From contig OZ076409.1 of NCBI GenBank assembly GCA_964187785.1, forward strand, positions 71,674,001 through 71,738,000: a stretch of 64,000 nucleotides of DNA. The letters are read 5' to 3'. The notes beneath the pieces are model-generated. The model worked only from the letters and a program-made list of their open reading frames with translations, was not told the DNA's origin and searched no databases. Made by a program: the position numbers and the translations under genes. Of the stretch, positions 1-49,524 are shown one piece after another (position 1 is the stretch's first letter; every line of letters begins with the position of its first letter). The DNA comes from Amphiscolops sp. MND2022 (lineage: Eukaryota).

Positions 1-1365
1 CATCAAAAATGGGCCAAAATTACACGAAAAAATTGACCTTAAAATATCAAAATGTCAAAAAATCATCAAAACCACAGTTTCTTGGCGTTCTATCAACTCC
101 ATATGATACCAAACCAGGTACCGCCAATCGTTTGAGTTATAATAAAAAAACGTCTTTTTTGGCAAGAATTCCATACCATAAATAATAATCATGTTCCATA
201 TAAGAAGCGAATCATTTCAGATATATACCCTGTTCATTTTTTTAATATTACCGATTATTAATTTATTAGATGTTTTGAATGTGAGCTTCCTAAAAGGTTC
301 AGGTGTGATGATACGTAAATAGAACCTTAGTTTCATCGAAATCTCAATTGAATATGTCCAATCTTAACCATCAGATAACAAGAAACACTTAAGTACATTC
401 CATCTCCCCATCGGGGGAGATGAGAATGTACTTTCGAGAAGCCAAATACGTCCAACATTCAAACTTTTGTAACTTTGTATGTAACTCCTGAAACGAAGAA
501 GGAATAAAATTGTTTCTGGTACATACATGAGTCTTTACTTCAGCTTCTATTTCTGCTGAACAAAACCATTCGACTCTTTTGCCGGAATTAGGATCAATTG
601 TATTACCCAGTGAACAAAGGCATGACTGAAAACGCTTACTAATTTGTTCATAATTTTCCGGCCTTCCGAAATGATGAAACGTCCACATAACTAAGATAGC
701 AAGTGAATGACTGCGAAATGCACCTTATTAGATGAGGTAAATAACGTGTAAGACTCTCCTTTATCCTAACATGAGGTTGAGTTATGATCATTTGAGAATA
801 GTTTGATATGTGACTACAATAGTATAAAACAAGTACATTTTATATGAATAACGCCGTGGAAAGCGTTCAGAAAGGACAGTAGGCTTGTTTGGAACATGTA
901 TGTGTGGTGTCCCTTGGTGGCGTTCGCTTAGTGTATATGTCGAGGGGTATTCGAGTTGTTATGATAGAATTTACAAACAAGTCTTTTGTTTTTTGGTTTT
1001 TTTAAAATGTCGTTAAGTACCTGCATTCTATCCCCTTCTCAGAGATGACGTGAAGTTACGTTTGCTAAATAAATGTCATCGAAAGATCACACTCCCGACG
1101 AAATTAACTATCTTAACACGTGTTTAGAATTTTAAATGAACAACCGTATAAGATTTTTATATTTCATTGAGTTTGATAAAGTCTTTTGTTCTTCTCACTA
1201 CTATTTCAACCAATACACATATCCGTTACCATATCACATGTCTCCATTAGTACAACGCCACATAGCGTTCCGACGCCCACAGTCTGTGGGCATTCCGAGG
1301 CATGCCCTTCGACGACGTATGGCAAATGGAGCCATGCCCGCCGTCTTTACGGCGGTAGCGGCTAG
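1..1365 (+). mobile_element. Class D unit, 3' part (partial)
   Basis: Nearly identical and colinear with 23941-25305 (offset 23940). Ends in hairpin CCGCCGT-CTTT-ACGGCGG plus TAGCGGCTAG. Mobility is inferred. Confidence 0.7.
391..433. other. Internal palindrome P2 (representative; in all C, D and E units)
   Basis: AAGTACATTC-CATCTCCCC-ATCG-GGGGAGATG-A-GAATGTACTT. Also at 16277-16315, 24331-24373, 35057-35099, 39827-39867, 44582-44624 and 53656-53696. Confidence 0.9.
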
Positions 1366-2906
1366 GTGGGCGGGGAAATTTCACCCCGTTTGTATTCGGC
1401 CGACGGGTAGGGTCCTGGCGGCCGACGATCCGCCTTAAGCTAGCGGTATGTAGCAGAAATTGCAAAAAAAAGACCTAAAATTTAATCTAACCATTAGAAT
1501 TTGCTCAAAATTTGCATGCGGCCCTCAAATCCTAATGCAAGACGAAGTTCCTGCTGACGCTAAGCGTTCTATAAACTTTATAAAAAGTTATGGCCAATTT
1601 TTTGTTCAAAATTTCAACATTTTTGGGAAAATTCTAATTTTTCACTTAATATCTCAAAATGTAATAATTTTTGGACTTTGACTGTGAAACAAGCTTGGAA
1701 CCTTCATTTCGTGGCTGTGGCATTGCACTGAACACAAAAGATGTAAAGTTTTTACATTTTTCGAAAATTCGAGATTTTTGAAATTTTTTTCACTACTATC
1801 AGTACCTCATATGTCAAAAACACATCAGAAAAAAATTTTTATTTGCTTTAAATTGGAAACCTTGGTATCCATGGTTACTGTCGGAACCTACTCGCAGCCA
1901 AACACCCAACAGTTTGCATCCAATGTGAAAATAAAATTTTTTTTTGGGTCATAAGCGTTTCACATGGATTTTACAACTTAGTTTCAATTTACAAATTGGT
2001 CATATTGAACACAATATTTTCATCGAAGCTTGTCAGATACCGCCCTAATGCTCACTAATGGGCCTACTCGCAACGTTGGAACCGTTTATAGTAATAGAAA
2101 GTTTTAAAAAAATATTTTCACCCGGTCTTCAGTCATTTTTCAGTCATTCGGAACTTAACTTAGAAAAATTTCGACCAAAATACCCATTTTTTGTCAGGTC
2201 GAAAAATCAAATTCAGATTTTTAAGCGAAATTATTTACTCTGACGTAACTAGTGGGCCCCATGATACTCAAAAACACGATTGGGACCGGTACCAAGGGCT
2301 CCAATTTCATATGAGCCGCGATAAGACGTTATTTTGAGCAACACGTCTCAATAGAGGTAAACATCTCGCAAGCCTGAAGTCACAGTGAAAAGTAATTTCA
2401 TCAAGAATTTACTCATTTTTGTCAATCACTATGTGCACAGAGTGCGCAGGATGAGTTTCAGCACTATAATGAGGTTTTTGATGTAATCGGCCTGCTCAAG
2501 GGTGTGTATGAGACATTTTTTTCCCATATAGCTATATTTTCCAAAATTTTTAGCCCATTATCTCAAAAACCTAACTTCGCAAAATGCTTTCAACTACTTT
2601 ATTCTAAGGTTAGAATATGAATGAACACTGTGGTTGATCAGAACCTCTCAATTTTTTTGTTTTCCGAAAAAATACCTTCGCATGGGTTACATTTATGGCA
2701 GAAGAGAAAGCAGAAGATAAAAAATACGCTATTTTGCTAAGATAGAAACGCGATGATTGTGCATAAATACCCTTTAAATACTTCTAACGCAACCTTATGG
2801 ACCCAATATGATTGGAAATACCGTTCACAGTCCTCACATGTACTCTTTCTACAATCCAGACTGCACATTTTTTGAAAATTTTACATGTAGCTTTAAACTG
2901 AATCTT

Positions 2907-2954
2907 GTGATAGCCTTTTAAGTTGACCTTGTGTCAACTTGGGAAGGCTATCAC
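2907..2954 (+). other. Internal palindrome P1 (representative; in all complete A and B units)
   Basis: GTGATAGCCTTTTAAGTTGAC-CTTGT-GTCAACTTGGGAAGGCTATCAC. The B copy is at 12854-12897. Both end about 420 nt before the unit end. Confidence 0.9.
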
Positions 2955-5389
2955 CACCAAAAACTATAAACAAAAACTACCATTTGTTAATCGGATTTCG
3001 CTGTCGATGCCTATTTTCGTGATTGTATACTACCGTTTGTATCTTCCATCATGTCAGCTGACGATAGCATGCAGAGTTTGAAAAAATACCTATGAACTCG
3101 AAGACATTTTTGTTTATTATTTGGTAAATAATTTTATTTCTAAATAATAAATAACAACTTCTAACCTTTGAATACTATCACATTTGTTTTCTCTTCCGTT
3201 ATCAGTCTTCCGTCACCCATGATGTCATGTCAGCCTATGTCATGACCCCGTGATTTCAACAACAACGCCATATACCAACATCAACGCCCACCGTCTGTGG
3301 GCATGCCGAGGCATGCCCTTCGACGACGTATGGCAAATTTATCGTTGCCCGCACTCTGGAGTGCGGTAGCAGCTAGGTGGGCGGGGGTAATTCCCCTTCA
3401 AAAAATTCGGCCGGCGGGTTGGGTCCTGCCGGACGTCAAATAGTGTGAAACATCCAGTAGGAAACGGCGACATAAATCAGCGATTTTAAAATTTAACCGT
3501 TAGATTTCGGATTTGGAGTGCATGCGGCCCCAAAATGCCCATACGAATCGAAGTTCCTGCTGACGTTAAGCGATAAAAACATTTTATAAAAAGTTATGGC
3601 CCATTTTACGTTCACCTATAAGGGTAAAATGAGGAAAATTTTTACAAAGTCGCTGATAACTCAAAATACATTATTTTTTGGACTTTGACTGTGAAACAAG
3701 CTTAGAACCTTCATTTCGTGGCTGTGGCATTGCACTGAACACAAAAGATGTAAAGTTTTTACATTTTTCGAAAATTCGACATTTTTGATTTTTTTTTCAC
3801 TACTATCAGTACACTATATGTCAAAAACACCTCTGAAAAAAATTATTATTTGCTTAAAATTGGAAACCTTGGTATCCATGGTTTCTGTCGGAACCTACTC
3901 GCTGCCAAACACCCAACAGTTTGCATCCAATGTGAATTTAAATTTTTTTTCGAGGTCATAAGGGTTTCACAAGGTTTTCATAACTTAGTATTAAACTACA
4001 AACTGGTCATTTTCAACATAATATCTTTGTCGAGGCATTTCGGATATAGTCCTATTGCTCACGAACGGTCCTACTGGCAACGTAATAACCATTTATAGAA
4101 ATGTAAAGTTATAAAAAAAATTTTTCACCCGGTCTTCAGTCATTTTTCAGTCATTCGGAACTTAACTTAGAAAAATTTCGACCAAAATATCCATTTTTTG
4201 TCAGGTCGAATAATCAAATTCAGATTTTTAAGCAAAATTATTAACTCTGACGTAACCCATGGGGCCCATGATACTCAAAACAACGATTGACACTGGTATC
4301 AATGGCTCCAATAACATATGAGTCGCGATAAGACGTTATTTTGAGCATTACGTCTCAATTGAGGTAAAGATCTCGCAAGCCAGCGATCACTGTGAAATGT
4401 GATTTCATCAAAAATTTACTCTTTTTTGTCAATCACTATGTGCACAGAATGCGTAGGGTGCGTTTCAGCACTATAATGAGGTTTTTGAAGGCATCGGGTT
4501 GCTCAAGGGGTGGTATGAGACATTTTTGTCCCATATACTACTGTATTTTCCAAAATTTTTAGCCCAATATCTGCAAATACAAACTTGACAAAATACTTTC
4601 AACTACTTTATTCAAAGATTACAATATAGATGAACACTGTGGTTGATCAGAAACTTTCATCTCTTTCGTTTTCCGAAATATTTCCCTTCGCATGTGTTAC
4701 ATTCGTAGCAGAAAAAAAATCGAAACTGAAAAATACGCAATTTTGCTAATATAGAATCGCAATGATTGTGCCTAAAAACTCTTTAAACACTTCTAACGCG
4801 ACCTTACGCACTCAAAATGATCGAAAATGCTATTCACAATGGTGACAAGTGCTCTTTCTACGATCCTGACTGGACAAGGTTTGCATATTTTTCAAGTACC
4901 TGTCAGCTAAATCTTGTGATAGCCTTTTCAGTTGGCCTTGTGTCAACTTGGGAAGGCTATCACATCAAAAAACCATCAATAAAAATAATTTTTGTTTATT
5001 GGATCTTACAGTCGAAACTTTTTTTCGTGATTCTATACTACCGTTAGTATATTTCATCAGGTCACCTTACGATTGCATTCAGTCTTTGATAAAAACCTAT
5101 GAACTCAAAGTCACATTTATATATTTTTTTGCCAAAAAAACATCAAAAATATCTAAAATATATAAAATAGAGTCTTGAACATTTTTACATTTCAAGTTTC
5201 TGCCGTTATTAGGCCAATCAACGTCCTAGAGCCACATCCTGTCATACTGTACAACGCCACATAGTGTTGCGACGTGCACAGTCTGTGGGCATGCCGAGGC
5301 ATGCCCTTCGACGACGTATGCCGAATACCGCGGGCCTACGCCCGCGCTCCCCGGCTAGGTGGGCGGGGGTAATTCCCCAACAAAAAAAT

Positions 5390-5417
5390 CGGCCGGCGGG
5401 TCGGGTCCTGCCGGCCG
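5390..5417 (+). other. 5' head hairpin with GGGTNGGGTCC apex (representative copy)
   Basis: CGGCCGGCGGG-TCGGGT-CCTGCCGGCCG. Equivalents with different stems are at 1397-1424, 11355-11378 and 15356-15377. Confidence 0.85.
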
Positions 5418-8400
5418 TCCAAAATCAAAATCCTCCTAGTAGAAAACGGCATGTCAAACGAGCTATTTTTTTATTTAACCATACGAATTTCACCATTTTT
5501 TGCATGCGGCCCTGAAATGGCCATACGAGACGAAGTTCCTGCTGACGTTTTGCGATGTAAATGTTTTATAAAAAGTTATGGCCGATTTGTCATTCACCTA
5601 GAAGGGTAAAATGAGGAAAATTTTAACAAAGTCGCTGATAACTCAAAATGTGGTAATTTTTGGACTTTGACTGTGAAACAAGCTTGGAACCTTCATTTCG
5701 TGGCTGGGGCATTGGACTGAACACAAAAGATGTAAAGTTTTTACGTTTTTTGAAAATTCGACATTTTTGAAATTTTTTTCACTACTATCAGTACCCCATA
5801 TGTCAAAAACACCTCAGAAAAATATTTTTATTTGCTTTAAATTGGAAACCTTGGTATCCATGGTTTCTGTCGGAACCTACTCGCAGCCAAACACCCAACA
5901 GTTTGCATCCAATGTGAAAATAAAAATTTTTTCGGGGTCATAAGCGTTTCACAAGGATTTCTCAACTTAGTATTAATTTACAAAATGGTCATTTTGAACA
6001 TAATATTTTCATCGAGGCTTGTCGGCTATAGCCTTAATGTTCTAGAACGGTCCCACTGGCAACGTAGCAACCATTTATAGTAATATAAAAGGTTAAAAAA
6101 TTTTTTTCACCCGGTCTTCAGTCATTTTTCAGACATTCGGAACATAACTTAGAAAATTTTCGACCCAAATACCCATTTTTTGTCAGGTCGAAAATTAAAA
6201 TTCAGCTATTAAAGCAAAATTATTTACTCTGACGTAACCAGTGGGGCCCATGATACTCAAAAACACCATTGGCACTGGTACCAATGGCTCCAATAACATA
6301 TGAGTCGCGATAAGACGTTATTTTGAGCAATACGTCTCAATTGAGGTAAAGATCTCGCAAGCCAGCGATCACTGTGAAATGTAAATTCATTAAAAATTTA
6401 CTCATTTTCGTCAATCACCATGTGCACAGAGTGCGTAGGGTGAGTTCCAGCACTATAATGAGGTTTTTGAAGGCATCGGGTTGCTCAAGGGGTGGTATGA
6501 GACATTTTTTTCCTATATACTACTGTATTTTCCAAAATTTTTAGCCCAATATCTGGAAATACAAACTTGACAAAATACTTTCAACTACTTTATTCAAAGG
6601 TTACAATATAGATGAACACTGTGGTTGATCAGAAACTTTCATCTCTTTCGTTTTCCGAAATATTTCCCTTCACATGTGTTATATTTTTAGCAGAATAAAA
6701 AATCGAAACTGAAATATACGCTATTTTGCTAATATAGAATCGCAATGATTGTGCCTAAAAACTCTTTAAACACTTCTAACGCAACCTTACGCACCCGAAA
6801 TGATCGAAAATGCTATTCACAATTGTGACATGTGCTCTTTCTACGATCCTGGCTGGACAAGGTTTGCATATTTTTCAAGTACCTGTCTGCTGAATCTTGT
6901 GATAGCCTTTTAAGTTGGCCTTGTGTCAACTTGGGAAGGCTATCACTTCAAACAACCATCAACAAAAATAATTTTTGTTTATTGGATATTACAGTTGATA
7001 CCTTTTTTCGTGATTCTATATTACCGTTAGTATATTCCATGAGGTCACCTTACGATTGCATTGAGACTTTGATAAAAACCTATGAACTCAAAGTCACATT
7101 TATATATTTTTTTGCCCAAAAAAATCATCAAAAACATCTATAATATATAAAATAGAGTCTTTAACATTTTTACGTTTCAAGTTTCTGCCGTTATTAAGCC
7201 AATCAACTTCCTACAGCCACGCTCTCTGTCATTCTGTACAACGCCACATAGTGTTGCGACGTGCACGGTCTGTGGGCATGCCGAGGCATGCCCTTCGACG
7301 ACGTATGCCGAATACCGCGGGCCTACGCCCGCGCTCCCCGGCTAGGTGGGCGGGGGTAATTCCCCAACAAAAATTACGGCCGGCGGGTTGGGTCCTGCCG
7401 GACGTTCAAATAGCGCGAAGCATCTAGTAGAAAACAAGGAGTCCTGAAACAGCGATTTTAAAATTGAACCGTTAGAATTTGGTTTTAGATTGCATGCGGC
7501 CCTAAAATCCCCATACGAATGGAAGTTCCTGCTAGCGTTAAGCGATTGAAATAATATATAAAAAGTTATGGCCTATTTTTGGGTCACCGAGAAGGTCAAA
7601 ATGAAGAAAATTTTAACTAAGTTGCTGATAACTCAAAATGTGTTAATTTTTGGACTTTGACTGTGAAACAAGCTTAGAACCTTCATTTCGTGGCTGTGGC
7701 ATTGCACTGAACACAATAGATGTAGAGTTTTTACATTTTTTGAAAATTCGACATTTTTGATTTTTTTTCACTACTATCAGTACACTATATGTCAAAAACA
7801 CCTCTGAAAAAAATTATTATTTGCTTAAAATTGGAAACCTTGGTATCCATGGTTTCTGTCGGAACCTACTCGCTGCCAAACACCCAACAGTTTGCATCCA
7901 ATGTGAATTTAAAATTTTTTTCGAGGTCATAAGGGTTTCACAAGGTTTTCATAACCTAGTATTAAACTACAAACTGGTCATTTTCAACATAATATCTTTG
8001 TCGAGGCATGTCGGATATAGTCCTATTGCTCACGAACGGTCCTACTGGCAACGTAATAACCATTTATAGAAATGTAAAGTTATAAAAAAATTTTTTCACC
8101 CGGTCTTCAGTCATTTTTCAGTCATTCGGAACTTAACTTAGAAAAATTTCGACCAAAATATCCATTTTTTGTCAGGTCGAAAAATCAAATTCAGATTTTT
8201 GAGCAAAATTATTAACTCTGACGTAACCCATGGGGCCCATGATACTCAAAACAACGATTGACACTGGTATCAATGGCTCCAATAACATATGAGTCGCGAT
8301 AAGACGTTATTTTGAACATTACGTCTCAATTGAGGTAAAGATCTCGCAAGCCAGCGATCACTGTGAAATGTGATTTCATCAAAAATTTACTCTTTTTTGT

Positions 8401-11243
8401 CAATCACTATGTGCACAGAATGCGTAGGGTGCGTTTCAGCACTATAATGAGGTTTTTGAAGGCATCGAGTTGCTCAAAGGATGGTATGAGACATTTTTGT
8501 CCCATATACTACTGTATTTTCCAAAATTTTTAGCCCAATATCTGGAAATACAAACTTAACAAAATACTTTCAACTACTTTATTCAGAGGTTACAATATAG
8601 ATGAACACTGTGGTTGATCAGAAACTTTCATCTCTTTCGTTTTCCGAAATATTTCCCTTCGCATGTGTTACATTCGTAGCAGAAAAAAAAATCGAAACTG
8701 AAAAATACGCAATTTTGCTAATATAGAATCGCACTGATTGTGCCTAAAAACTCTTTAAACACTTCTAACGCAACCTTAGGCACCGAAAATGATCGAAAAT
8801 GCTATTCACAATGGTGACATGTGCTCTTTCTACGATCCTGGCTGGACAAGGTTTGCATATTTTTCAAGTACCTGTCAGCTAAATCTTGTGATAGCCTTTT
8901 CAGTTGGCCTTGTGTCAACTTGGGAAGGCTATCACATCAAAAAACCATCAACAAAAATAATTTTTGTTTATTGGATCTTACAGTCGATACTTTTTTTCGT
9001 GATTCTATACTACCGTTAGTATATTTCATCAGGTCACCTTACGATTGCATTCAGTCTTTGATAAAAACCTATGAACTCAAAGTCACATTTATATATTTTT
9101 TGGCCAAAAAAACATCAAAAATATCTAAAATATATAAAATAGAGTCTTTAACATTTTTACGTTTCAAGTTTTTGCCGTTATTAAGCCAATCAACTTCCTA
9201 CAGCCACGCTCTCTGTCATACTGTACAACGCCACATAGTGTTGCGACGTGCACAGTCTGTGGGCATGCCGAGGCATGCCCTTCGACGACGTATGCCGAAT
9301 ACCGCGGGCCTACGCCCGCGCTCCCCGGCTAGGTGGGCGGGGGTAATTCCCCAACAAAAAAATCGGCCGGCGGGTCGGGTCCTGCCGGCCGTCCAAAATC
9401 AAAATCCTCCTAGTAGAAAACGGCATGTCAAACGAGCTATTTTTTTATTTAACCATACGAATCTCACCATTTTTTGCATGCGGCCCTGAAATGGCCATAC
9501 GAGACGAAGTTCCTGCTGACGTTTTGCAATGTAAATGTTTTATAAAAAGTTATGGCCGATTTGTCATTCACCTAGAAGGGTAAAATGAGGAAAATTTTAA
9601 CAAAGTCGCTGATAACTCAAAATGTGTTAATTTTTGGACTTTGACTGTGAAACAAGATTGGAACCTTCATTTCGTGGCTGGGGCATTGGACTGAACACAA
9701 AAGATGTAAAGTTTTTACGTTTTTTGAAAATTCGACATTTTTGAAATTTTTTTCACTACTATCAGTACCCCATATGTCAAAAACACCTCAGAAAAAAATT
9801 TTTATTTGCTTTAAATTGGAAACCTTGGTATCCATGGTTTCTGTCGGAACCTACTCGCAGCCAAACACCCAACAGTTTGCATCCAATGTGAAAATAAAAA
9901 ATTTTTCGGGGTCATAAGCGTTTCACAAGGATTTCTCAACTTAGTATTAATTTACAAAATGGTCATTTTGAACATAATATTTTCATCGAGGCTTGTCGGC
10001 TATAGCCTTAATGTTCTAGAACGGTCCCACTGGCAACGTAGCAACCATTTATAGTAATATAAAAGGTTAAAAAATTTTTTTCACCCGGTCTTCAGTCATT
10101 TTTCAGACATTCGGAACATAACTTAGAAAATTTTTGACCCAAATACCCATTTTTTGTCAGGTCGAAAATTAAAATTCAGCTATTAAAGCAAAATTATTTA
10201 CTCTGACGTAACCAGTGGGGCCCATGATACTCAAAAACACCATTGGCACTGGTACCAATGGCTCCATTAACATATGAGTCGCGATAAGACGTTATTTTGA
10301 GCAATACGTCTCAATTGAGGTAAAGATCTCGCAAGCCAGCGATCACTGTGAAATGTGATTTCATCAAAAATTTACTCATTTTTGTCAATAACTATGTGCA
10401 CAGAGTGTGTAGGGTGCGTTTCAGCACTATAATGAGGTTTTTGAAGGCATCGGGTTGCTCAAGGGGTGGTATGAGACATTTTTTTCCTATATACTACTGT
10501 GTTTTCCAAAACTTTTAGCCCATTATCAGGAAAAAATAATTTGACAAATTACTTTCAACTACTTTATTCAAAGGTTACAATATAGATGAACACTGTGGTT
10601 GATCAGAAACTTTCATCTCTTTCGTTTTCCGAAATAATTCCCTTCGAATGTGTTACATTTGTAGCCGGAAAAAAAACCGAAACTAAAAAATACGCGATTT
10701 TGCTGAGATAGAACCGGGATAATTGTGTCTAAATACTCTTTAAATACTTCTAACGCGACCTTACGGACCCAAAAGGATTAAAAATGCCACTCACAATGCT
10801 GACATGTGCTCTTTCGACGATCCTGGCTGGACAAGTTTTGCAAATATTTCAAGTACCTGTTAACTGAATTTTGTGATAGCCTTTTAAGTTGGCCTTGTGT
10901 CAACTTGGGAAGGCTATCACATCAAAAAACTTTCAACAAAAAAACTTTTTGTTTATTGGATATTGCTGTCGATACCTTTTTTAGTGATTCTATACTACCG
11001 TTAGTATATTCCATCAGGTCACCAGACGATTGTATTCAGTATTTGATGAAAATTTATGAACTCGAAGTCTCTTTCATATGTTTTTTGTTCAAAAAAATTA
11101 TCAAAAAAATTTATATTATAAACAATTGAGTCTTTAACTTTTTTATTCCCCAATTTTCCAGTGTTATTAGGCTCATCAACTTCCTACTGCCACATCCAGA
11201 CATTAGTACAACGCCACAAAGTGTTGCGACGTCCACCGTCTGT

Positions 11244-11263
11244 GGGCATGCCGAGGCATGCCC
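11244..11263. promoter_or_regulatory. 20-bp palindrome GGGCATGCCGAGGCATGCCC; candidate p53-family response element (representative copy)
   Basis: 9-bp inverted arms around GA. Read as two decamers (GGGCATGCCG, AGGCATGCCC) it matches RRRCWWGYYY x2 at 19/20 positions. The motif is certain; the function is inferred. Confidence 0.5.
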
Positions 11264-11293
11264 TTCGACGACGTATGCCAAAAATAGCGCCCT

Positions 11294-11321
11294 CCGCGGT
11301 CACTACCGCGGTAGCAGCTAG
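11294..11321 (+). terminator. Helitron-like 3' terminus: 18-nt hairpin + CTAG (representative copy)
   Basis: CCGCGGT-CACT-ACCGCGG ends 10 nt before the unit end (TAGCAGCTAG). This matches the known Helitron 3' signature of a 16-20 nt palindrome about 10-12 nt upstream of a CTRR end. Confidence 0.55.
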
Positions 11322-13316
11322 GTGCGGGGGGGAAACCCCAACAAAATTTTTGGAGGATTCGGGTAGGGTCCTGAATCCGAGTTCAGTGCTGCCAGCTTCC
11401 GTTAAGAAAATTTGGATAGGATTCGGGATCTCGTGATCTAACCATAGGATTTTAAAGTTGGAGCGGCCCCCACCAGATTTTCCGAAAATTAGCGCCCCCC
11501 ACCGGGTTCCATACCCCGGAAAATTTTTTTCTGGCCACACGGGCGACCGTTAGGGGGTCATTTTAGGGGTAAAATTCATATTGGGCCACATAACTTTTTT
11601 TCTGTTGATTTAAAACTTTGGGACCCTTCTAAAAGTTTCTTGGCCGTGTTGCAGGGGCCCCGGAGGTCCAAACCAAATTTTTCTATCTTGAAGCTATCTC
11701 CAAGTACCCCCCCGCCCAAAACGTTATTTTTCCGGAAACGCAGGTTTTTGACCCGGAAGGAGTCGTCGGAGCGCGGGGTCGTTAGGTGATGTATTGGGGA
11801 CGGCCTTGAGACGAAGCGGGGGACATGCAGTTTGCCAACCCCAGTTTACCCCCCGGACGGGAAATGACCGTTATATGAGCGGGAAAAATGCCCCCTTCCA
11901 CGTTTTACCGCTATTTCCGGTGTGAAGGAATGGGAGTAGCGCGTCGGGTGCCATATATCAAAAGTAGGTTTAGACAAGGACCTATCGGAAACATGTGGTT
12001 TGGGACCCCCTGGACCAACCCGTTAGCGGGAAATGGGGCTTCCGGCCCGTTTTTTTACTGCTAAAACCGTAAAATGGGCATTGAGGGGTAAATATCCCGT
12101 GAACGCGTGGAGCAATCGTGTCCATCACTACTACAAGGTTTCATACCCATGATATGGTGCCTTCAGGGGGGCAAACAGATTTCCGCTATCTATCACCGTT
12201 ACCGACTTGGCCCCCCAGCCTAACCGCTATGTGACCGGAAATGTCACTTTTTGAGCCCAAAGGGTCGGTCCCAGCCGGGGAACGTTAGGTAACTTATTGT
12301 AGTACTCAATGAGACGAGTTGGGGGATATAGTTTCAGTCACCCCCCGTTACCCCTTGGGACCGGAAATGACCGTTATGTGGGTAAAATTGCAATTTTTAT
12401 ACTTTTTCAAGTGTATTTAGGTGTGGAAGGAGTGGTAATAGGTGCTTGGACACTATATGATGTAATGGAGGTCGTGAGGAGAGCATTCGGAAATAACCGT
12501 TATGTTGACCCCAAAGTCCCCCTGGTACCGTTAACGACCGGAAATGGCCAAATTTTGTGTCTATTGGGTACAAATGTTTGGTATTTTATGGATAAAAGTA
12601 CCTGGAAGGTGTTTTAAAGGCCTCCAGAAGTGAACATAGTCATGAAACCTTGTGGGGGGTAACGGTATATAGCACCGGAAGTCCAAACCGTTGGTCACAG
12701 AATAGGTTTTTTGGTTTCAAAATGTCTTTAGGCATAGTTTTGTGGGTTGAATCGTCATAATATCAACTAATACGGACTTTTTTCGGAAATAAAATTTTTT
12801 CACATTAGTTTCAGGGACCTCCAATGCTTCAGTCAACATAACCGTTACATTTTGATAGCCTTTCAAGTTGACCTGGTGTCAACTTGGAAGGGCTATCCTT
12901 CTAAAATCGTTAATCAAGAGTGTTTTTAGGGTAGGTATATGTTGCATTAGTACCAATTAGAGCTTCATCAACAGTTTGCCAACGGCAAAAACGATGTCGT
13001 GATAATTCCGTTATAAAAATATTAGTTAACAAATTGTTTTCAAAGTTGATTTTTTCCATTAAAAATGTGTCCTGATGCCACCAAATTGAATAAAAGAATA
13101 AATGGTATTGACTAAAACTAAATAACAATGAAAAAGAAGATCAACATTTTTATTAGGTCTCATTATGGAAGCTGAAACCTCACGTTTTAGTTTAATTAAC
13201 GTCAACGCCACATACTTTACATCAACGCCCACCGTCTGTGGGCATGCCGAGGCATGCCCTTCGACGACGTATACCAAACAACCTCCATATCTACACCCAT
13301 CCGCGGTAGCAGCTAG
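11322..13316 (+). mobile_element. Class B unit (GC-richer, 1995 bp)
   Basis: Starts GTGCGGGGGG. Interior is not alignable by eye to class A, but it shares the head hairpin, palindrome P1 and the 3' core. Homologous to 16583-18558 and 18559-20530. Confidence 0.7.
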
Positions 13317-15306
13317 GTGGGCGGGGGTAATTCCCCAACAAAAAAATCGGCCGGCGGGTCGGGTCCTGCCGGCCGTCCAAAATCAAAATCCTCCTAGTAG
13401 AAAACGGCATGTCAAACGAGCTATTTTTTTATTTAACCATTAGAATTTCACCATTTTTTGCATGCGGCCCTGAAATGGCCATACGAGACGAAGTTCCTGC
13501 TGACGTTTTGCGATGTAAATGTTTTATAAAAAGTTATGGCCGATTTGTCATTCACCTAGAAGGGTAAAATGAGGAAAATTTTAACAAAGTCGCTGATAAC
13601 TCAAAATGTGATAATTTTTGGACTTTGACAGTGAAACAAGCTTGGAACTGTCATTTCGTGGCTGTGGCATTGCACTGAACACAAAAGATGTAAAGTTTTC
13701 ACATTTTTTGAAAATTCGACATTTTTGAAATTTTTTTCACTACTATCAGTACCCCATATGTCAAAAACACCTCAGAAAAAAATTTTTATTTGCTTTAAAT
13801 TGGAAACCTTGGTATCCATGGTTTCTGTCGGAACCTACTCGCAGCCAAACACCCAACAGTTTGCATCCAATGCGAAATAAAAAATTTTTTCGAGGTCATA
13901 AGCGTTTCACAAGGTTTTCATGATTTAGTATTAAATTACATAGTGGTCATTTTAAACATAAAATTTTGGTCCAGGCATGTCGGATATAGTCTGAATGCTC
14001 ACGAACGGTCCTACTGGCAACGTAGGAACCATTTATAGTAATAAAAAGTATTAAAAAAATTTTTTCACCCTGTCTTCAGTCATTTTTCAGACATTCGGAA
14101 CTTAACTTAGAAAATTTTCGAACCAAATACCCATTTTTTGTCAGGTCGAAAATTGAAATTCAGCTATTAAAGCAAAATTTTTTACTCTGACGTAACCAGT
14201 GGGGTCCATGATACTCAAAAATACGATTGGGACTGGTACCAATGGCTCCTATATCATATGAGCCGCGATAAGACGTTATTTTGAGCAATACGTCTCAATT
14301 GAGGTAAACATCTCGCAAGCCTGGGATCACAGTGAAAAGTAATTTCATCAAAAAATTACTCATTTTCGTCAATCACTATGTGCATAGAGTGGGTAGGGTG
14401 AGTTCCAACACTATAATGAGGTTTTTGAAGGCATCGGGTTGCTCAAGGGGTGGTATGAGTCATTACTTTCCTATATACAACTGTATTTTCAAAAACTTTT
14501 AGCCCATTATCTGGAAAAACTAACTTGACAAAATACTTTCAATTAATTTATTCAAAGGCTACAATATAGATGAACCCTGTGGTTGATCAGAAACTTTCAT
14601 CTCTGTCGTTTTCCGAAATAACTCCTTTCAAATGTGTTACATTTGTAGCAGAAAAAAAAACTGAAACTAAAAAATACGCGATTTTGCTGAGATAGAATCG
14701 CAATGGTTGCGCCTAAAATCTCTTTAAATACTTCTAACGCGACCTTACGGACCCAAACTGATTGAAAATGCCATTCACAATGCTGACATGTGCTCTTTCT
14801 ACGATCCTGGCTGGACAAGTTTTGCATTTTTTTCAAGTACCTGTTAACTGAACATTGTGATAGCCTTTCAAGTTGGCCTTGTGTCAACTTGGGAAGGCTG
14901 TCACATCAAAAAACTGTCAACAAAAATACCATTTGTTTATAAGATATTGCTGTCGATGCTTCACTTCGTGATTCGATCATGTCGTGAGTTCCTTCCATCA
15001 GGTCAGCTAACATTTGGATTCAGTGTTTGATAAGAACCTATGATTTTCATGACAATTTTTGTTTTTTTTTTGCCAACAAAAAGTACGAATAAATGATATA
15101 AAACATATTTGTAACCTTTAGGAAGTTTAACTTTACCTTTATTTACCGTTATCATCGCCACCCACCCCTACGACCTCGCAGTGTCCTCATTACAACGCCA
15201 CATAGTGTAGCGACGCCCACAGTCTGTGGGCATGCCGAGGCATGCCCTTCGACGACGTATGGCAAATATAGCGTTAGCCCGCGGTCACTACCGCGGTAGC
15301 AGCTAG
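13317..15306 (+). mobile_element. Class A unit (1990 bp)
   Basis: Colinear with the other A units, with its own variant pre-core and tail sequence. Confidence 0.7.
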
Positions 15307-16582
15307 GTGGTCGTTAGCATGGGATTTTCTTTATGAGCGTAGTCCACTTTTTTTAGGCCGGGGTAGGGTCCCGGGCCGTTACCAATTTCTTACGGAGGAA
15401 AAATGTGAAAATCTGCGAGTTTAAAAAATTGGCCCGTACGATTTGGCTGAAAATTGGCATACAGCATCGTCTTGGTAAACAAATGACTTTGTCTTAGTGA
15501 CATTTTGCCCAGGAAATTCAAAAAGTTGGTCAAATTGAAAATTTTTTGACCGTCTAAGGCAAAAATTTGACTTTTTCGCTTTTTTTGGTCAATTTCCTCA
15601 GAATTGGTTGATTTTGGTGAAGTGAGTCATAAGAGGTTATAAGGTCTGCAAATAGCCATCAATTGGCTTGCATAATCAGATTTTGTCAAAAGTGTTTAGT
15701 TTTTTCAAAATTTCACACTTTTTTTTCATTTCAATGTTTTTTGATATAATTTATTGAATTTTTTCTAAGTTCCACTAAATATTTTTAAAATGTTTTTAAA
15801 ACACCTTTTTTTGCACGTTTTTGATGTTTTTTGCTCTCCCATATAGGTTTTCGCATACGGGGAACCTGAATCTGGCAACGAAGTAACTTTATTCCGCAGT
15901 TCAACTTACGCCATTTTTAATAGTGAAAAATCACTCATTTTCAATCTAACGAGTGAAAATATCAGAATTTAAAAACCTAAAGTTGAGTTTAAGGCGACTT
16001 ACAGGTAGAAACAAATGCTCAGAAACAAACTGATTTCTTGTATTAGCTAAAGAAAGCCTTTAAAATTCTTTTTACTTTCTTTAAATCAATATTCGACACT
16101 TCATGAAATTTGTCAGTGGAAAAACTTTATCATTTTTTAAATTAAAAACTTGCTTTGTTGGTCATTTCCGTTAGTCATTAGTAGCTGTGTATAGCTCCGA
16201 AGCCTTTCAAGTTCTTTTGACCCTATTTGAAAATTTTTGATACTGCATAATCAATCCGAGAGAATGAAACAGTTGTGTACATTCCATCTCCCTCTTGGGG
16301 GAGATGAGAATGTACTTCCTAAAGTCCAGGTACTATAGATCATATTTGGTTTTATGCGACGCCCTCTATGCTAGTGCATATAAATACAAGTTGTTTGGCT
16401 GGATTTTGCTTCTGACTTGACGTATACTGTACGTTTGGTACTGACAATACCCATCATATACATAACAAACGTCAACGCCACATACCCTTACCAACGCCCA
16501 TAGTCCGTAGGCATGCCGAGGCATGCCTTTCGACGACGCGCGCCAAACACAAGCGCGCCCGCACTTTTGCGGTAGCGGCTAG
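15307..16582 (+). mobile_element. Class C unit (1276 bp, single copy)
   Basis: Starts GTGGTCG with a unique T-rich interior. Retains the GGGTAGGGTCC hairpin (15356-15377), palindrome P2 (16277-16315), a variant core and hairpin+CTAG. Confidence 0.7.
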
Positions 16583-19500
16583 GTGCGGGGGGGTAACCCC
16601 AACAAAATTTTTGGAGGATTCGGGTAGGGTCCTGAATCCGAGTTCAGTGCTGCCAGCTTTCGTTAAGAAAATTTGGATAGGATTCGGGATCTCGTGATCT
16701 AACCATAGGATTTTAAAGTTGGAGCGGCCCCCACCAGATTTTCCGAAAATTAGCGCCCCCCACCGGGTTCCATACCCCGGAAAATTTTTTTCTGGCCACA
16801 CGGGCGACCGTTAGGGGGTCATTTTAGGGGTAAAATTCATATTGGGCCACATAACTTTTTTTCTGTTGATTTAAAACTTTGGGACCCTGCTAAAAGTTTC
16901 TTGACCGTGTTGCAAGGGCTCCGGAGGTCCAAACCAAATTTTTCTATCTTGAAGCTATCTCCAAGTACCCCCCCGCCCAAAACGTTATTTTTCCGGAAAC
17001 GCAGGTTTTAGACCCGGAAGGAGTCGTCTGAGCGCGGGGTCGTTAGGTGATGTTTTGGGGACGGCCTTGAGACGAAGTGGGGGACATGTAGTTTGCCGAC
17101 CTCGGTTTACCCCTCGGACAGGAAATGACCGTTATTTGAGCGGGAAAATTGCCCCCCTCCACGTTTTACCGCTATTTCCGGTGTGAAGGAGTAGGAGTAG
17201 CGCGTCGGGTGTTATATATCAAAAGTAGGTTTAGACAAGGATCTATCGGAAACATGTGGTTTGGGACCCCCTGGACCAACCCGTTAGCAGGAAATGGGGC
17301 TTCCGGCCCGTTTTTTTACGGTTAAAAACGGAAAATGGGCATTGAGGGGTAAATATCTCGTGAACGCGTGGAGCTACGGTGTCCTTCACTACTTCAAGGT
17401 TTCATACCCATGATATGGTGCCTTCAGGGGGGCAAACAGATTTCCGCTATCTATCACCGTTACGGACTTGGCCCCCCAGCCTAACCGTTAAGTGACCGGA
17501 AATGTCATATTTTGAGCCCAAAGGGTCGGTCCCAGCCAGGGAACGTTAGGTAACTTATTGTAGTACTCAATGAGACGAGTTGGGGGACATAGTTTCAGTC
17601 ACCCCCCGTTACCCCTTGGGACCGGAAATGACCGTTATGTGGGTAAATTTGCAATTTTTATACTTTTTGAAGGGCATTTAGATGCGGAAGGAGTGGTAAT
17701 AGGTGCTTGGACACTATATGATGATAGGGAGGACGTGAGGCGAGCATTCGAATATAACCGTTATGTTGACCCCAAAGTCCCCCTGGTACCGGAAGTGACC
17801 CGTAATGGTCAAATTTCGTGTTTAAAGGTTACAAATGTTTGGTGTTTTATGGAAAACAGTGCCTATTAGGTGTTTCGACGGTCTGCAGTCGTGAACATAG
17901 TCATGAAACCTTGTGGGGGGTAACGGGTTATAGCACCGGAAGTCCAAACCGTTGGAGACAGGATAAGTTTTTTGGTTTTAAAATGTCTTTCGGCCTACTT
18001 TTGTCGACTATTATGGACTATTTTTGGAAAATAAAGTTTTTTCCATATAGTTTCAGAGACTCCGAAACCTCAACCAACATAACCGTTACCTTATGATAGC
18101 CTTTCAAGTTGGCCTGGTGTCAACTTGGAAGGGCTATCCTTCAAAAATCATTAATCCAGTGTGTTTTTGAGTATGCTTGTTTTACTTTAGAATCAATTAG
18201 AGCTTCAAGAAAAGATTGCCAACGACAAAAACTATGTCGTGATGATTCCGTTATTACAATAATAGTTACCAAAATGTTGATAAAGTTGATTTTTTACATT
18301 TCAAATATGTCCTAAATGCCAGAAAACCTCTTTACCAAACAAATGGTATTGATTGAATTGTAAATAGCAGCTAATAAAAGTTCAAATTGAATATTACGTT
18401 TCATTATGCAAGCTGAAACGTCATATTATAGTTTCATTAACGTCAACGCCACATACTTTACATCAACGCCCACCGTCTGTGGGCATGCCGAGGCATGCCC
18501 TTCGACGACGTATACCAAATTCCTCCAACACAACACCCCCGAGCGCGTTAGCAGCTAGGTGCGGGGGGGAAACCCCAACAAAATTTTTGGAGGATTCGGG
18601 TAGGGTCCTGAATCCGAGTTCAGTGCTGCCAGCTTTCGTTAAGAAAATTTGGATAGGATTCGGGATCTCGTGATCTAACCATAGGATTTTAAAGTTGGAG
18701 CGGCCCCCACCAGATTTTCCGAAAATTAGCGCCCCCCACCGGGTTCCATACCCCGGAAAATTTTTTTCTGGCCACACGGGCGACCGTTAGGGGGTCATTT
18801 TAGGGGTAAAATTCATATTGGGCCACATAACTTTTTTTCTGTTGATTTAAAACTTTGGGACCCTGCTAAAAGTTTCTTGGCCGTGTTGCAGGGGCCCCGG
18901 AGGTCCAAACCAAATTTTTCTATCTTGAAGCTATCTCCAAGTACCCCCCCGCCCAAAACGTTATTTTTCCGGAAACGCAGGTTTTTGACCCGGAAGGAGT
19001 CGTCGGAGCGCGGGGTCGTTAGGTGATGTATTGGGGACGGCCTTGAGACGAAGCGGGGGACATGCAGTTTGCCAACCCCAGTTTACCCCCCGGACGGGAA
19101 ATGACCGTTATATGAGCGGGAAAAATGCCCCCTTCCACGTTTTACCGCTATTTTCGGTGTGAAGGAGTGGAAGTAGCGCGTCGGGTGCCATATATCAAAA
19201 GTAGGTTTAGACAAGGACCTATCGGAAACATGTGGTTTGGGACCCCCTGGACCAACCCGTTAGCGGGAAATGGGGCTTCCGCCTCCTTTTTTTACTGCTA
19301 AAACAGTAAAATGGGCATTGAGGGGTAAATATCTCGTGAACGCGTGGAGCTACGGTGTCCATCACTACTACAAGGTTTCATACCCATGATATGGTGCCTT
19401 CAGGGGGGCAAACAGATTTCCGCTATCTATCACCGTTACTGACTTGGCCCCCCAGCCTAACCGCTATGTGACCGGAAATGTCACTATTTGAGCCCAAAGG

Positions 19501-20530
19501 GTCGGTCCCAGCCGGGGAACGTTAGGTAACTTATTGTAGTACTCATTGAGACGAGTTGGGGGATATAGTTTCAGTCACCCCCCGTTACCCCTCGAGACCG
19601 GAAATGACCGTTATGTGAGTAAAATTGCCATTTTTGTACTTTTTGAAGGGCATTTAGATGCGGAAGGAGTGGTAATAGGTGCTTGGACACTGTATGATGT
19701 AAGGGAGGACGTTAGGCGAGCATTCGGACATAACCGTTATGTTGACCCTAAAGTCCCCCTGGTACCGTAAACGACCGGAAATGGTCAAATTTTGTGTCTA
19801 TTGGGTACAAATGTTTAGTATTTTGTAAATAAAAGTATCTATTAGGTGTTTCGACGGTTTGCAGTAGTGAACATAGTCATCAAACCTTGTGGGGGGTAAC
19901 GGTATATAGCACCGGAAGTCCAAACCGTTGGTGACAGGATAGGTTTTTTGGTTTTAAAATGTCTTTCGGCGTACCTTTGTCGACTATTAAGGACTATTTT
20001 TTAAAAATTAAAGTTTTTCTATATAGTTTCAGAGACTCCGAAACCTCAACCAACATAACCGTTACCTTTTGATAGCCTTTCAAGTTGGCCTGGTGGCAAC
20101 TTGGAAGGGCTATCCTTCAAAAATCGTTAATCAAGAGTGTTTTTGGGTAGGTATATATTCAATTAGTACCAATTAGAGCTTCATCAACAGTGTATCAACG
20201 ACAAAAACTAAGCCGTCATGATTCCGTTGTTAGAATAGTAGTGAGCTAATTGTTGACAAAAATATTTTTTTTATACAAAATGTGTCCTAAATGCCAGGAA
20301 ATCTATTTACCTAACAAATGGTTATGATTGGAATGTATGTAACAGATTTATAAAAGTTCAAATTGAATATTACGTTTCATTATGGAAGCTGAAACGTCAT
20401 ATTTTAGTTTAATTAACGTCAACGCCACATACTTTACATCAACGCCCACCGTCTGTGGGCATGCCGAGGCATGCCCTTCGACGACATATACCAAATACAT
20501 ACCTAACGACGCCCGTACATCCCGGGCTAG
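16583..20530 (+). mobile_element. Two class B units (16583-18558, 1976 bp; 18559-20530, 1972 bp)
   Basis: Colinear with 11322-13316, with near-identical heads and different tails. Confidence 0.7.
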
Positions 20531-23500
20531 GTGGGCGGGGGTAATTCCCCAACAAAAAAATCGGCCGGCGGGTCGGGTCCTGCCGGCCGTCCAAAATCAA
20601 AATCCTCCTAGTAGAAAACGGCATGTCAAACGAGCTATTTTTTTATTTAACCATACGAATTTCACCATTTTTTGCATGCGGCCCTGAAATGGCCATACGA
20701 GACGAAGTTCCTGCTGACGTTTTGCGATGTAAATGTTTTATAAAAAGTTATGGCCGATTTGCCATTCACCTAGAAGGGTAAAATGAGGAAAATTTTAACA
20801 AAGTCGCTGATAACTCAAAATGTGTTAATTTTTGGACTTTGACTGTGAAACAAGCTTGGAACCTTCATTTCGTGGCTGGGGCATTGGACTGAACACAAAA
20901 GATGTAAAGTTTTTACGTTTTTTGAAAATTCGACATTTTTGAAATTTTTTTCACTACTATCAGTACCCCATATGTCAAAAACACCTCAGAAAAAAATTTT
21001 TATTTTCTTTAAATTGGAAACCTTGGTATCCATGGTTTCTGTCGGAACCTACTCGCAGCCAAACACTTAACAGTTTGCATCCAATGTGAAAATAAAATTT
21101 TTTTCGGGGTCATAAGCGTTTCACAAGGATTTCTCAACTTAGTATCTATTTACAAATTGGTCATTTTGAACACATGATTTTCATCGAAGCGTGTCAGATA
21201 CCACCCTAATGCTCACGAATGGGCCTACTGGCAACGTTGGAACCATTTTTAGTAATAGAAAGTATTAAAAAAATATTTTCACCCGGTCTTCAGTCATTTT
21301 TCAGACATTCGGTACTTAACTTAGAAAAATTTCGCATCAAAAACCCATATTTGGTAGGGTCGAAATTTGAAATTCAGTTTTTTATGCAAAATTATTAACT
21401 CTGACGTAACCAGTGGAGCCCATGATACTCAAAATCACGATTGGGACTGGTATCAGTGGCTCCAATAACATATGAGCCGCGATAAGACGTTATTCAGAGC
21501 AAACGCTCTAAATCGAAGTAAACATCTCTGAAGCCTGGGATCACAGTGAAATGTGATATCACCAAAAGTTTACTCTTTTTTGTCAATCACTATGTACACA
21601 GAGTGCGTAGGGTGAGTTTCAGGACTATAATGAGGTTTTTGAAGTAATCGCGCTGCTCAAGGGGTGGTATGAGACTATTTTTTCCCATATACTACTACAT
21701 TTCCATAAATTTGCAGTCCATTGTCTTGGAAAGATAACTTCACAAAAACAATTTTTGTACTCTATTCAGTTATTAGAATAAAGTTGAACACTGTGGTTGA
21801 TCAGAAATGCTCAATTCTTTTGGTTTTTAAAAAAATTCCTTCGCATTCGTTACATTTGTGGAAGGAAGGTTATCAGTAGCTCCAAAAAAAACGAAATTTA
21901 GCACGAACAGACATGCAACGATGCAAAGCAAAAACGTTTTTACAACTTTCGACGTCATTATTTTACCCAAGAAGATTGAAAATATCATTCGCAATGCTGT
22001 CATTCGCTATATATACGATCGCGGTCAATTTACAAACATTTAGATTTCATTGTTCTGCTTGAAAACCAATTTTTGTCAGGTCGAAATTTTAAATTTTGCC
22101 TGGGGAGCAAAACCCTTCACGCTGAAGTAAACAGTGGGGCCCAAGTTACTCAAAAACAAGAAAGAGACTGCTACAATATGTCCTAATAACATATGGACCA
22201 CGATAGTACACTTTTCACACAAAAAACTCTCATCCGAAGTAAATATGTTGAAAGCTTTTAATCACCGTGAGAAGTGATTTCATCAAAAAATAACTCTTTT
22301 TTGTCAATCACTATTTACACAGAATTTGTAAAGTTAGTTTGAGTCATGAAATGAGGCTTTACCGTAATATGGGTTGCTCAAGGTGTTATATAAGACAAAA
22401 ACTTCCTCTTTTCTACTAGCTTCTTCAAATATTTCAACCCTTTGTCACAATAAGTTAATATTCAAAATATCTTTGAAATGTATCTTTATGTTGGGGTGAA
22501 GTCTAAGAACAATAACTATGATCGAAGAATGCTAGTACTGGTGTTTGAACCATGTCCGGATGAACAAATCACAAAATCATCAAAAAATTGTTCCCTTTTT
22601 TGGTTATTTTGGCAGTACTAAAAATGTTAGCTGATAAATAATTTTTTCGATGGCACCATTGGATTCCTCTCAAAAAGTTGGTTATATGACCTGTGTAATA
22701 ACCCCGTATCTTTTCAATTTAAATATATTTAAAAAGCCAACTATTTTGACCAAAATCCTAAAAATCATACCATTTCCTAAAAATTTTCAAATGCACCCCA
22801 TTTGACGTATAAGATAAGCACAGAAAACTATCATTTACCGATCAACTCTACTCCCATTGTAGATTATTAGAATTCTGTTTAGAATGAATTTTGATGGATA
22901 TTAAAAAAATTTTGAACCCTCCAAAAATGGGCCAAAATTACACGAAAAAATTGACCTTAAAATACCAAAATGTCAAAAAATCATCAAAACCACGGCTTCT
23001 TGGGGTTCTATCAACTCCGCGTGGTCCACAGAGTATGCTAAAACAGGATTTACCCGTTTTTGAGCAATATGTGAAAAAGCCGACATTTTTGGGAAAGAAA
23101 AACATACCATTTCCTAAAAAAATTCAAATGCACGTAATTTGCCGTATTAGAATAGCACAGAAAACTATCACATACCAATCAACTCTACTTCCATTGCAGA
23201 TGAACAGAATTTTGTTTAGAATGAATTTTACCGGATAATAAAAAAATTTGAATCCTTCAAAAATGGGCCAAAATTACACGAAAAAATGGACCTTAAAAAT
23301 TTAAAAAGTCAAAAAATCATCAAAACAACAGCTTCTTGGGGTTCTATCAACTCCACGAGGTCCACAGAGTATGCTAAAACAGGTTTTACCCGTTTTTGAG
23401 CAATATGTGAAAAAGCCGACATTTTTGGGAGAGAAAAACATACCATTTCCTAAAAAAATTCAAATGCACGCCATTTGCCGTATGAAAATAGCACAGAAAA

Positions 23501-48500: not shown

Positions 48501-49524
48501 TTATTTTGAGCAATACGTCTCAATTGAGGTAAACATCTCGCAAGCCTGGGATCACAGTGGATTGTAAATTCATCAAAAGTTTACTCGTTTTTGTCAATCA
48601 CTATGTGCACAGAGTGCGTAGGGTGAGTTCCAGCACTATAATGAGGTTTTTGAAGGCATCGGGTTGCTCAAGGGGTGGTATGAGACATTTTTTTTCTATA
48701 TACTACTGTATTTTCCAAAATGTTTAGCCCATTATCTGGAAAAACTAACTTGACAAAATACTTTCAATGATTTTATTCAAAGGCTACAATGTAGATGAAC
48801 CCAGTGGTTGATAAGAAACTTTCATCTCTTTCGTTTTCCGAAATATTTCCCTTCGCATGTGTTACATTTGTAGCAGAAAAAAAATCGAAACTGAAAAATA
48901 CGATATTTTGCTAATATAGAATCGCAATGATTGTGCCTAAAAACTCTTTAAACACTTCTAACGCGACCTTACGCACCCAAAATGATCAAAAATGCTTTTC
49001 ACAATGGTGACATGTGCTCTTTCAACGATCCTGACTGAACAATTTTCGCAAATTATTCAAGTACCTGTTAACTGAATCTCGTGATAGCCTTTTAAGTTGG
49101 CCTTGTGTCAACTTGGGAAGGCTATCACATCAAAAAATTTTCAACAAAAATACATTTTGTTCATTGGAAATGACAGTCGATATATAATTTCGTGATTCTA
49201 TACTACCGTTAGTACCTTCCATTAAGTCACCTGACGATTGCTTTCAGTCTTTGATAAATACCTATGAACTCGAAGTCTTATTTATAAATTTTGTGCTAAA
49301 AATAAACATCAAAACTATCCAAATTATTTAAAATTGAGTCTTTACCGTTTTTGTTTTTCTTTTTCTACTGTTATTAGGCTCATCAACTTCCTACAGCCAC
49401 GCTCTCTGTCATTAGTACAACGCCACATAGTGTTGCGACGTGCACGGTCTGTGGGCATGCCGAGGCATGCCCTTCGACGACGTATGCCGAATGCACTGCG
49501 GCGACGCCCGCAGTCCAAGGCTAG
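45558..49524 (+). mobile_element. Two class A units (45558-47540, 47541-49524)
   Basis: 1983 and 1984 bp. The second has a unique terminal hairpin ACTGCGG-CGACGC-CCGCAGT. Confidence 0.7.

Follow-up and report, generated by a model that had tools for sequence, protein, structure and literature searches.

A p53-like palindrome within the right-end signal of non-coding elements stacked head to tail, a putative binding site of the elements' own transposase

Does a palindrome that closely resembles a p53 response element serve a host p53-family protein or the DNA element that carries it? This question was raised by positions 11244..11263 (+ strand) of the window, the whole 64-kb stretch of DNA analysed here. 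The sequence, GGGCATGCCGAGGCATGCCC, consists of 9-bp arms around a GA centre, with an 8-bp palindrome (GGCATGCC) nested in each arm, and agrees with the p53 consensus at 19 of 20 positions. Animals generally possess p53-family genes.

A scan of both strands with up to five mismatches allowed revealed 25 copies of the palindrome in the window, all on the + strand. Apart from the copy at 11244, they start at 1288, 3299, 5287, 7274, 9261, 13240, 15228, 16509, 18481, 20457, 25228, 27220, 29207, 31193, 35954, 40717, 45480, 47469, 49453, 54546, 56517, 58505, 60493 and 62484. A sequence-only reading of this DNA had counted 23 identical copies and one G>T change at 1294, and this was borne out. The change is carried by the copy at 1288, where it disrupts stem and core alike and provides no discrimination between p53 and an enzyme of the elements as the reader of the site. 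That reading had also assigned a variant to a "class C". The variant, with A…T as the outer pair, does exist, but in the single copy at 16509, located at the right end of a 1,276-bp element (here class D), whereas three GC-richer elements of ~1.98 kb (here class C) carry the common form of the palindrome.

The scanning of metagenome contigs with the 18-base core returned 77 loci, one of which, L055, was a true relative, whereas 76 lacked the flanks of the palindrome. Over the 25 copies and L055, 17 of 20 palindrome positions were invariant and the only recurrent change concerned positions 1 and 20, which changed as a pair. The central bases G10 and A11 were fixed in 26/26 sequences even though G10 does not conform to the p53 consensus, and L055 retained both this mismatch and all C/G core positions. 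Relatives that keep the palindrome and lose the core, which would have spoken against the sequence-only reading, were not seen, L055 being the one outside relative with full sequence. A metagenome scan using the flanks only, meant for relatives without the core, gave 0 matches with a query strict enough to miss L055 too.

Invariance was not confined to the palindrome. In the alignment of 15 class-A elements, in which invariant columns made up 59%, the longest invariant run was 40 bp (11238..11277, +; GTCTGT, the palindrome and TTCGACGACGTATG; 15/15 elements), the runner-up having 23 bp. The nine bases just 3' of the palindrome and 11 of the 17 bases 5' of it were also invariant across the 25 copies and L055. 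The palindrome, described before as the most conserved stretch of the array, is hence the centre of that stretch and not the whole of it. The block is placed 45-85 bp inside the 3' end of the element. Three direct repeats of the C(A/G)ACG type surround the palindrome: the first (11209..11217, +; CAACGCCAC) at -35 to -37 from it in 25/25 copies and as GGACGCCTA at -35 in L055, the second (11227..11235, +; C[A/G]ACG…CA) at -17 in 26/26 and the third (11266..11274, +; CGACGAC..) at +22 in 26/26. Their spacing of 18-20 and 39 bp ruled out helical phasing.

The whole window (1..64000, +) proved to be an array of 24 complete non-coding elements of 1.3–5.1 kb, stacked head to tail in one orientation with 25 junctions and belonging to four classes. 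No host flank or dispersed copy was found within the 64 kb. The flagged palindrome is part of the right (3') end of a class A element of 1,989 bp (9333..11321, +), one of 15 complete elements of this class (1,982-2,011 bp, 81-100% alike). The following element (11322..13316, +; 1,995 bp, 45% GC) has a body unrelated to A and represents class C, with two further members at 16583-18558 and 18559-20530 (+; 1,972-1,995 bp for the three), and class D is the single element at 15307..16582 (+; 1,276 bp). Class B comprises five complete elements of 4,761-5,081 bp, the 4,775-bp one at 20531..25305 (+) having an A-like first ~1.3-1.5 kb, a 336-bp internal tandem repeat and a right part of its own; the others start at 31271, 36032, 40794 and 49525, and a partial one ends at 1365 (all +). 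The bodies of A, C and D are unrelated except for short end and hairpin blocks.

The 336-bp repeat of class B is present in 3.8-4.8 copies at 22761-24041, 33502-34767, 38262-39596, 43027-44292 and 51755-53354, and the class also contains a second copy, ~70% alike, of A positions ~890-1270. Despite their unrelated bodies, A and C elements are near-equal in length (1,972-2,011 bp), which may indicate a size constraint on a mobile form.

None of 32 stop-to-stop frames of at least 70 aa, taken from five representative elements, reached the Pfam cut-off and two gave weak matches below it; no transposase or autonomous copy was found in the window. Rfam covering 9000-26000, with at least one element of each class, gave one match (E 0.85) under the gathering score, and ARAGORN detected 0 tRNA genes in the window, so ribozyme, spliced-leader and snRNA-array readings were dropped; a U-rich stretch present at the left ends of C does not recur in A. 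A Fanzor/omega-RNA system was discarded as no nuclease gene was seen and a guide from the next element would be expected to cut every junction, and an intron-like GT…AG reading as only the dinucleotides, with no further splice consensus, were present.

The boundary between units was located at CTAG↓GTG (11318..11324, +; the arrow marks the boundary), the element that starts at 9333 ending at 11321 and the next one starting with GTG at 11322. Junctions sit 72–79 bp after the palindrome start and read CTAG↓GTG in 24 of 25 window cases and CTGG↓GTG in one; with L055 included, C..G↓GTG was invariant in 26/26. On the + strand of the window, CTAGGTG occurs at junctions only. Among 42 junction pairs identical over at least 100 bp downstream, 34 diverged within six bases upstream of GTG. 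An A-type end was identical over 173 bp upstream, yet the C start found there has only GTG in common. The segment between palindrome and CTAG correlated with the unit upstream of it (Mantel r 0.32, p 0.001) but not with the unit downstream (Mantel r -0.08, p 0.81), which places the unit boundary elsewhere than at the palindrome. An origin of the palindrome from two elements whose terminal inverted repeats abut was likewise ruled out, the boundary lying 52-59 bp further on. The array is thus built of discrete non-coding elements with a precise C..G↓GTG boundary, unrelated bodies and common end signals.

Hairpins were found at both ends of the elements. The 3'-subterminal one at 11294..11311 (+) has a 7-bp stem and a 4-nt loop and ends 10 nt before the element end. 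A hairpin of this kind, with a stem of 5-8 bp, occurs at 21 of 25 junctions, where it stops 10-12 nt short of the element end, six stem sequences being in use; it is missing in the three class-C ends, the shortened end and L055. The left-end hairpin, at 11355..11378 (+) in the element starting at 11322, combines a fixed GGGT-N-GGGTCC top with a covarying stem, in which two-sided changes affected 4 of 11 pairs in eight sequences. The covariation of this stem was 0.412 against 0.150 after shuffling (0/500 shuffles), a figure inflated by the kinship of the eight related sequences. Separately, the 35-40 nt from the block to CTAG were very different among the three C elements (13274-13312, 18515-18554 and 20491-20526), which are 89-92% alike elsewhere.

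All complete elements additionally contain an internal hairpin of 39-44 bp, of one type in A/C (10875..10918, +; 44 bp; 18/18 complete A and C elements, 441-468 bp from the end) and of an unrelated type in B/D (16277..16315, +; 39 bp; common to B, D and L055). Further examples lie at 12854-12897, 24333-24371 and L055 566-605. The two internal hairpins tested had z-scores of -7.4 and -6.4, the A/C type has 14-bp arms around a 5-nt centre, and two B elements carry a second, degenerate internal hairpin ~340 bp from the end (40445, 54274). In folding, the + strand was the more stable one in 11/26 cases as RNA and in 20/26 as DNA, with no clear strand preference. Hairpins at both ends are kept by covariation, and the 40-bp block inside the 3' end is fixed in sequence. 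As the palindrome is fixed while other hairpins vary, a protein probably reads it as sequence.

The relative L055 possesses the B/D-type internal hairpin, the direct repeats and the A…T variant of the palindrome. Its left end is C-like, with the same hairpin top on a new stem. The junction of L055, CGAG↓GTG, follows 72 bp on and does not fit CTRR, so CTRR is not absolute; it joins different bodies, so the head-to-tail arrangement recurs with bodies other than those of the window. The element family was also carried by contigs of runs X1 and X2, coded as two organisms, in which right-end variants adjoin the block; among the differences listed for X2 were a right end of B type and, directly against the block, a new right-end variant. 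X1 shows further variants between block and CTAG, and one of its contigs joins places of window 11859-11918, where CCGGAAATGACC-like motifs recur in class C, on opposite strands, as an inversion or fold-back inside class C.

Pattern scans of viral contigs gave 0 matches; in prokaryote genomes, two scans gave 5 and 19 chance matches, none of which contained the palindrome, and two more gave 0; plasmids and phages yielded no blastn match. Judging from these negative results and from the array itself, the host is probably a eukaryote. The 18-base core or its complement was not found in the literature covered, and the family may already be catalogued in repeat collections such as Repbase or Dfam. 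No description of these end sequences was found in the sections of the literature compared.

The explanation we favour, with moderate confidence, is that the palindrome lies at the middle of a subterminal signal to which the elements' own putative transposase would bind, the elements being non-canonical rolling-circle elements that insert at their own junction. An autonomous partner elsewhere in the genome would bind the block (palindrome and C(A/G)ACG repeats), in the manner of a replication-origin binding site beside a nick. Its enzyme, presumably of the HUH type, would nick at the junction and peel off one strand, and strand transfer would stop at the hairpin and CTAG. The copy or circle would then be pasted where these end signals are already present, at an existing junction; such junction-targeted pasting would build mixed head-to-tail arrays, whose ends and bodies homologous exchange between neighbours would subsequently shuffle. 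The fit to p53 would be incidental or secondary.

Several observations are consistent with this explanation. The flanks are as fixed as the palindrome and G10 and A11 never vary, as expected for a site of the elements' own enzyme. All 25 window ends fit CTRR, the shortened CTGG end included, the element order is mixed, neither terminal inverted repeats (TIR) nor coding capacity were found, and L055 displays the same anatomy with other bodies. In Helraiser, a palindrome 11 nt upstream of CTAG-3' acts as a stop signal and circles have exact head-to-tail junctions (PMC4778049). At the shortened junction (54600..54608, +), the element starting at 49525 is without its last 17 nt (window 54590-54606) and ends at an internal CTGG, and the following element keeps a normal GTG start; early termination would give this structure, and a 17-nt slippage deletion can equally do so. 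Element 1366-3376 looks as if one unit had been added cleanly where a B end meets an A start, the two being direct neighbours at 25306. In seven near-identical element pairs, the upstream neighbour's end was common (>95%) in one and the downstream neighbour's end in two. As the window contains no dispersed copy or host flank, the target rule derives solely from the array.

Other features disagree with a rolling-circle origin. The 5' end is GTG and not TC or T, the junction is G↓G and not A↓T or T↓T, and L055 (CGAG, no 3' hairpin) as well as the three class-C ends without a 3' hairpin deviate from a Helitron-type end. Against an enzyme of the elements stands the self-palindromic nature of the arms, which a hairpin does not need, together with a p53 fit that is better than chance.

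Comparison with described rolling-circle groups gave partial likeness in each case. Helitron1/HLE1 elements share the lack of TIR, a 3' hairpin 10-12 nt before CTAG or CTRR and precise head-to-tail junctions (PMC4778049, PMC11417382), as well as left ends more diverse than right ones and non-coding units of ~2 kb. Unlike them, the array elements start with GTG (26/26) instead of TC and have G↓G instead of A↓T at all junctions, a fixed 40-bp inner block that surpasses the terminal hairpin in conservation, arrays of mixed families, CGAG in L055 and no RepHel found in five elements. In canonical Helitrons the last hairpin together with CTAG makes up the 3' signal, and a more conserved inner block is absent from the portions of the descriptions compared. 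With HLE2 (Helitron2/Helentron/HINE/DINE-1), the elements have in common hairpins at both ends (PMC3627910) and, in class B, internal tandem repeats like those of non-autonomous Helentron derivatives (PMC4067079), but they have no 11-17-bp asymmetric terminal inverted repeat (best 8-10/14 vs the last 130 bp, with no covariation with class), no T↓T junction and no T-rich termini. As the elements lack the 5'-TC and A↓T that define HLE1 (PMC11417382) and fall outside the definition of HLE2 (PMC3627910) as well, we claim only that they may work like Helitron-type elements, which the shared architecture suggests, and not that they are such elements.

Replitrons are also HUH-type, with oriented insertion right after RG and a right-end hairpin (PMC10288648), and the RG rule is satisfied by 26/26 junctions (AG in 25, GG in 1). 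Unlike in Replitrons, no 6-bp direct repeat was present inside both ends, where only the (A)GGTG core could be read as a shared repeat, and no fuzzy ends, duplications or Rep gene were seen. In Paramecium, target-specific Helitrons have non-canonical ends (CCAA) and covarying 3' stem-loops (bioRxiv 2025.11.06.686955). A Hydractinia Helitron subfamily forms tandem arrays of varied unit length (bioRxiv 2024.11.21.624632), with telomeric repeats between units that the window does not have, and tandem transposon arrays as such are already known (PMC5932611; Hydractinia preprint). Judged by sequence, the elements would represent a new variant of the rolling-circle-like non-autonomous type with junction-specific stacking and predicted mobility.

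A tentative alternative, which we consider possible though doubtful, is that the palindrome is a working p53/p63/p73-family element through which a host protein might open or transcribe the junction in the germ line or after DNA damage. This would be compatible with either mobility mechanism discussed here, and a p53 site and a site of the elements' own enzyme could both hold. The p53 consensus is RRRCWWGYYY twice with a spacer of 0-13 (PMC3485254). An exact match was found in 0 of the 25 copies, but 24 of 25 fit at 19/20 with spacer 0 and two intact CATG cores, as does L055, so the near-perfect p53 element that had been claimed for every unit is present in all copies but one. The fit at 19/20 would arise by chance in 1.5-3.7 x 10^-4 of random perfect palindromes with a 9-bp stem and a 2-nt loop (GC 37-80%; uncorrected for the number of hairpins scanned). 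The nested symmetry of the palindrome, and the contrast between adjacent hairpins that vary with compensation and a palindrome fixed in sequence, which points to reading as sequence by a protein, also agree with p53 binding. An origin of the CATG cores by CpG deamination was unsupported (CpG observed/expected 1.0).

There is a precedent for transposons that carry p53 sites, as the sequence-only reading had stated. The non-autonomous zebrafish transposon EnSpm-N6_DR, like the L1, Alu and LTR cases cited with it, contains the two-decamer consensus, in the form of active p53 elements (PMC3485254). The sites of EnSpm-N6_DR occur in a single family and are missing from its sister families (PMC3485254), whereas here an invariant site at a fixed distance from the end is common to four unrelated bodies and a second organism. 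In the best 15 of 519 literature matches on Helitron or rolling-circle elements, a p53 binding site is not mentioned. The p53-like site lies 59-78 bp upstream of the start of the next element. The "dense binding platform" proposed earlier was overstated, with one site per element of 1.3-5.1 kb.

In natural p53 sites the R/Y/W positions change independently of one another, and p53 tolerates such changes. Such independent degenerate variation was not seen here: the inner R/Y/W positions are invariant, the outer pair changes together and the G10 mismatch is fixed in 26/26. Binding by p53 also leaves unexplained the invariant flanks (TTCGACGAC, GTC.GT and the three repeats). Four B elements of one subtype have a second site with one mismatch and a 1-bp spacer, ~400 bp upstream of the palindrome (881, 24821, 35547 and 45072), which would favour p53, but in two B elements of the other subtype it is degenerate and the match gone. 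The same 19/20 sequence was found within a bacterial DNA polymerase III alpha gene (Pfam, L034, 2501-2518; L018, L019 and L027 are similar loci), and 28 of the 77 matches, in unrelated loci, reach 19/20, which documents occurrence and not rate as these loci were found via the core. Of the two readers offered by the sequence-only reading, the p53 fit is thus real, and conservation favours its alternative, the element's own enzyme, since the block is 40 bp long and asymmetric, G10 and A11 are fixed in 26/26 and the pair 1/20 is the only recurrent change. The machinery by which the elements are copied is a likelier user of the palindrome than host p53.

It is unlikely that a site-specific recombinase moves the elements as cassettes, in the form of double-stranded circles, with the block and direct repeats as its loading site. 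Such an enzyme might be a tyrosine recombinase (Crypton-like, with crossover in the shared (A)GGTG) or a serine recombinase (IS607-like, with crossover at GG), and its need for core identity would make junctions the preferred target. G↓GTG, invariant in 26/26 junctions where CTAG is not, and the lack of TIR and duplications fit this mode of movement. Cryptons end in direct repeats of 4-6 bp and pass through circular intermediates (PMC3212892), and the shared GGTG or AGGTG is compatible with such repeats, the host flank being absent from the window; IS607-type ends cross over at the GG dinucleotide, matching G↓G in 26/26, and carry direct repeats at a subterminal position, 20-60 bp away from the terminus (PMC6188088, PMC10711439). 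However, no 11-13-bp inverted arms surround the junction (best 5-8 of 12 in six junctions), as they do the 6-8-bp core in Cryptons, and the 9-bp repeats are not helically phased, being 18-20 and 39 bp apart instead of the ~10 bp described for IS1535. No recombinase gene, tyrosine or serine, was present among 32 frames of five elements, and the covariation-kept hairpins at both ends, a further difference from Cryptons, point to a single-stranded intermediate.

Still less probable is an immobile array, an old complex satellite (e.g. at subtelomeres or centromeres) in which unequal exchange and gene conversion drive turnover and the block is either homogenised or maintained by a host protein that binds chromosomes. 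A and B ends and bodies are mosaic, with many exchanges inside A/B bodies and near the block, so homologous exchange contributes, and homologous recombination alone accounts for part of the mosaic. A two-unit block is duplicated (3377-7345 vs 25306-29278; 35 and 1 differences), tandem transposon dimers can grow into satellites (PMC5932611) and subtelomeres in Hydractinia are filled by Helitron tandem arrays (bioRxiv 2024.11.21.624632). Against a satellite, breakpoints between unrelated classes fall at the 4-nt G↓GTG and not in the 40-bp block of longest homology, units are 81-100% alike without a gradient and with mostly unrelated neighbours, and the same ends occur with other bodies in L055, X1 and X2. 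Least probable is the combination of undescribed eukaryotic elements that use their own end-to-start junction as the sole integration site, accumulate unrelated cargo bodies as an ordered cassette array between GTG…CTAG ends and have their movement timed to the germ line or DNA damage by a host p53-family protein at the palindrome.

The ends described here match no described rolling-circle group in full, yet they are sharply defined. Being common to four unrelated bodies and to the DNA of at least one other organism, they provide a handle for finding a new junction-targeting transposase. The palindrome is real, and its p53-family function is hypothetical. Should a p53-family protein bind it, the p53 site would belong to a conserved mobility signal instead of merely riding along, and the array would allow a direct test of how p53 is linked to transposon movement; otherwise, the array would advise caution, as strong matches to the p53 consensus can be transposon end signals.
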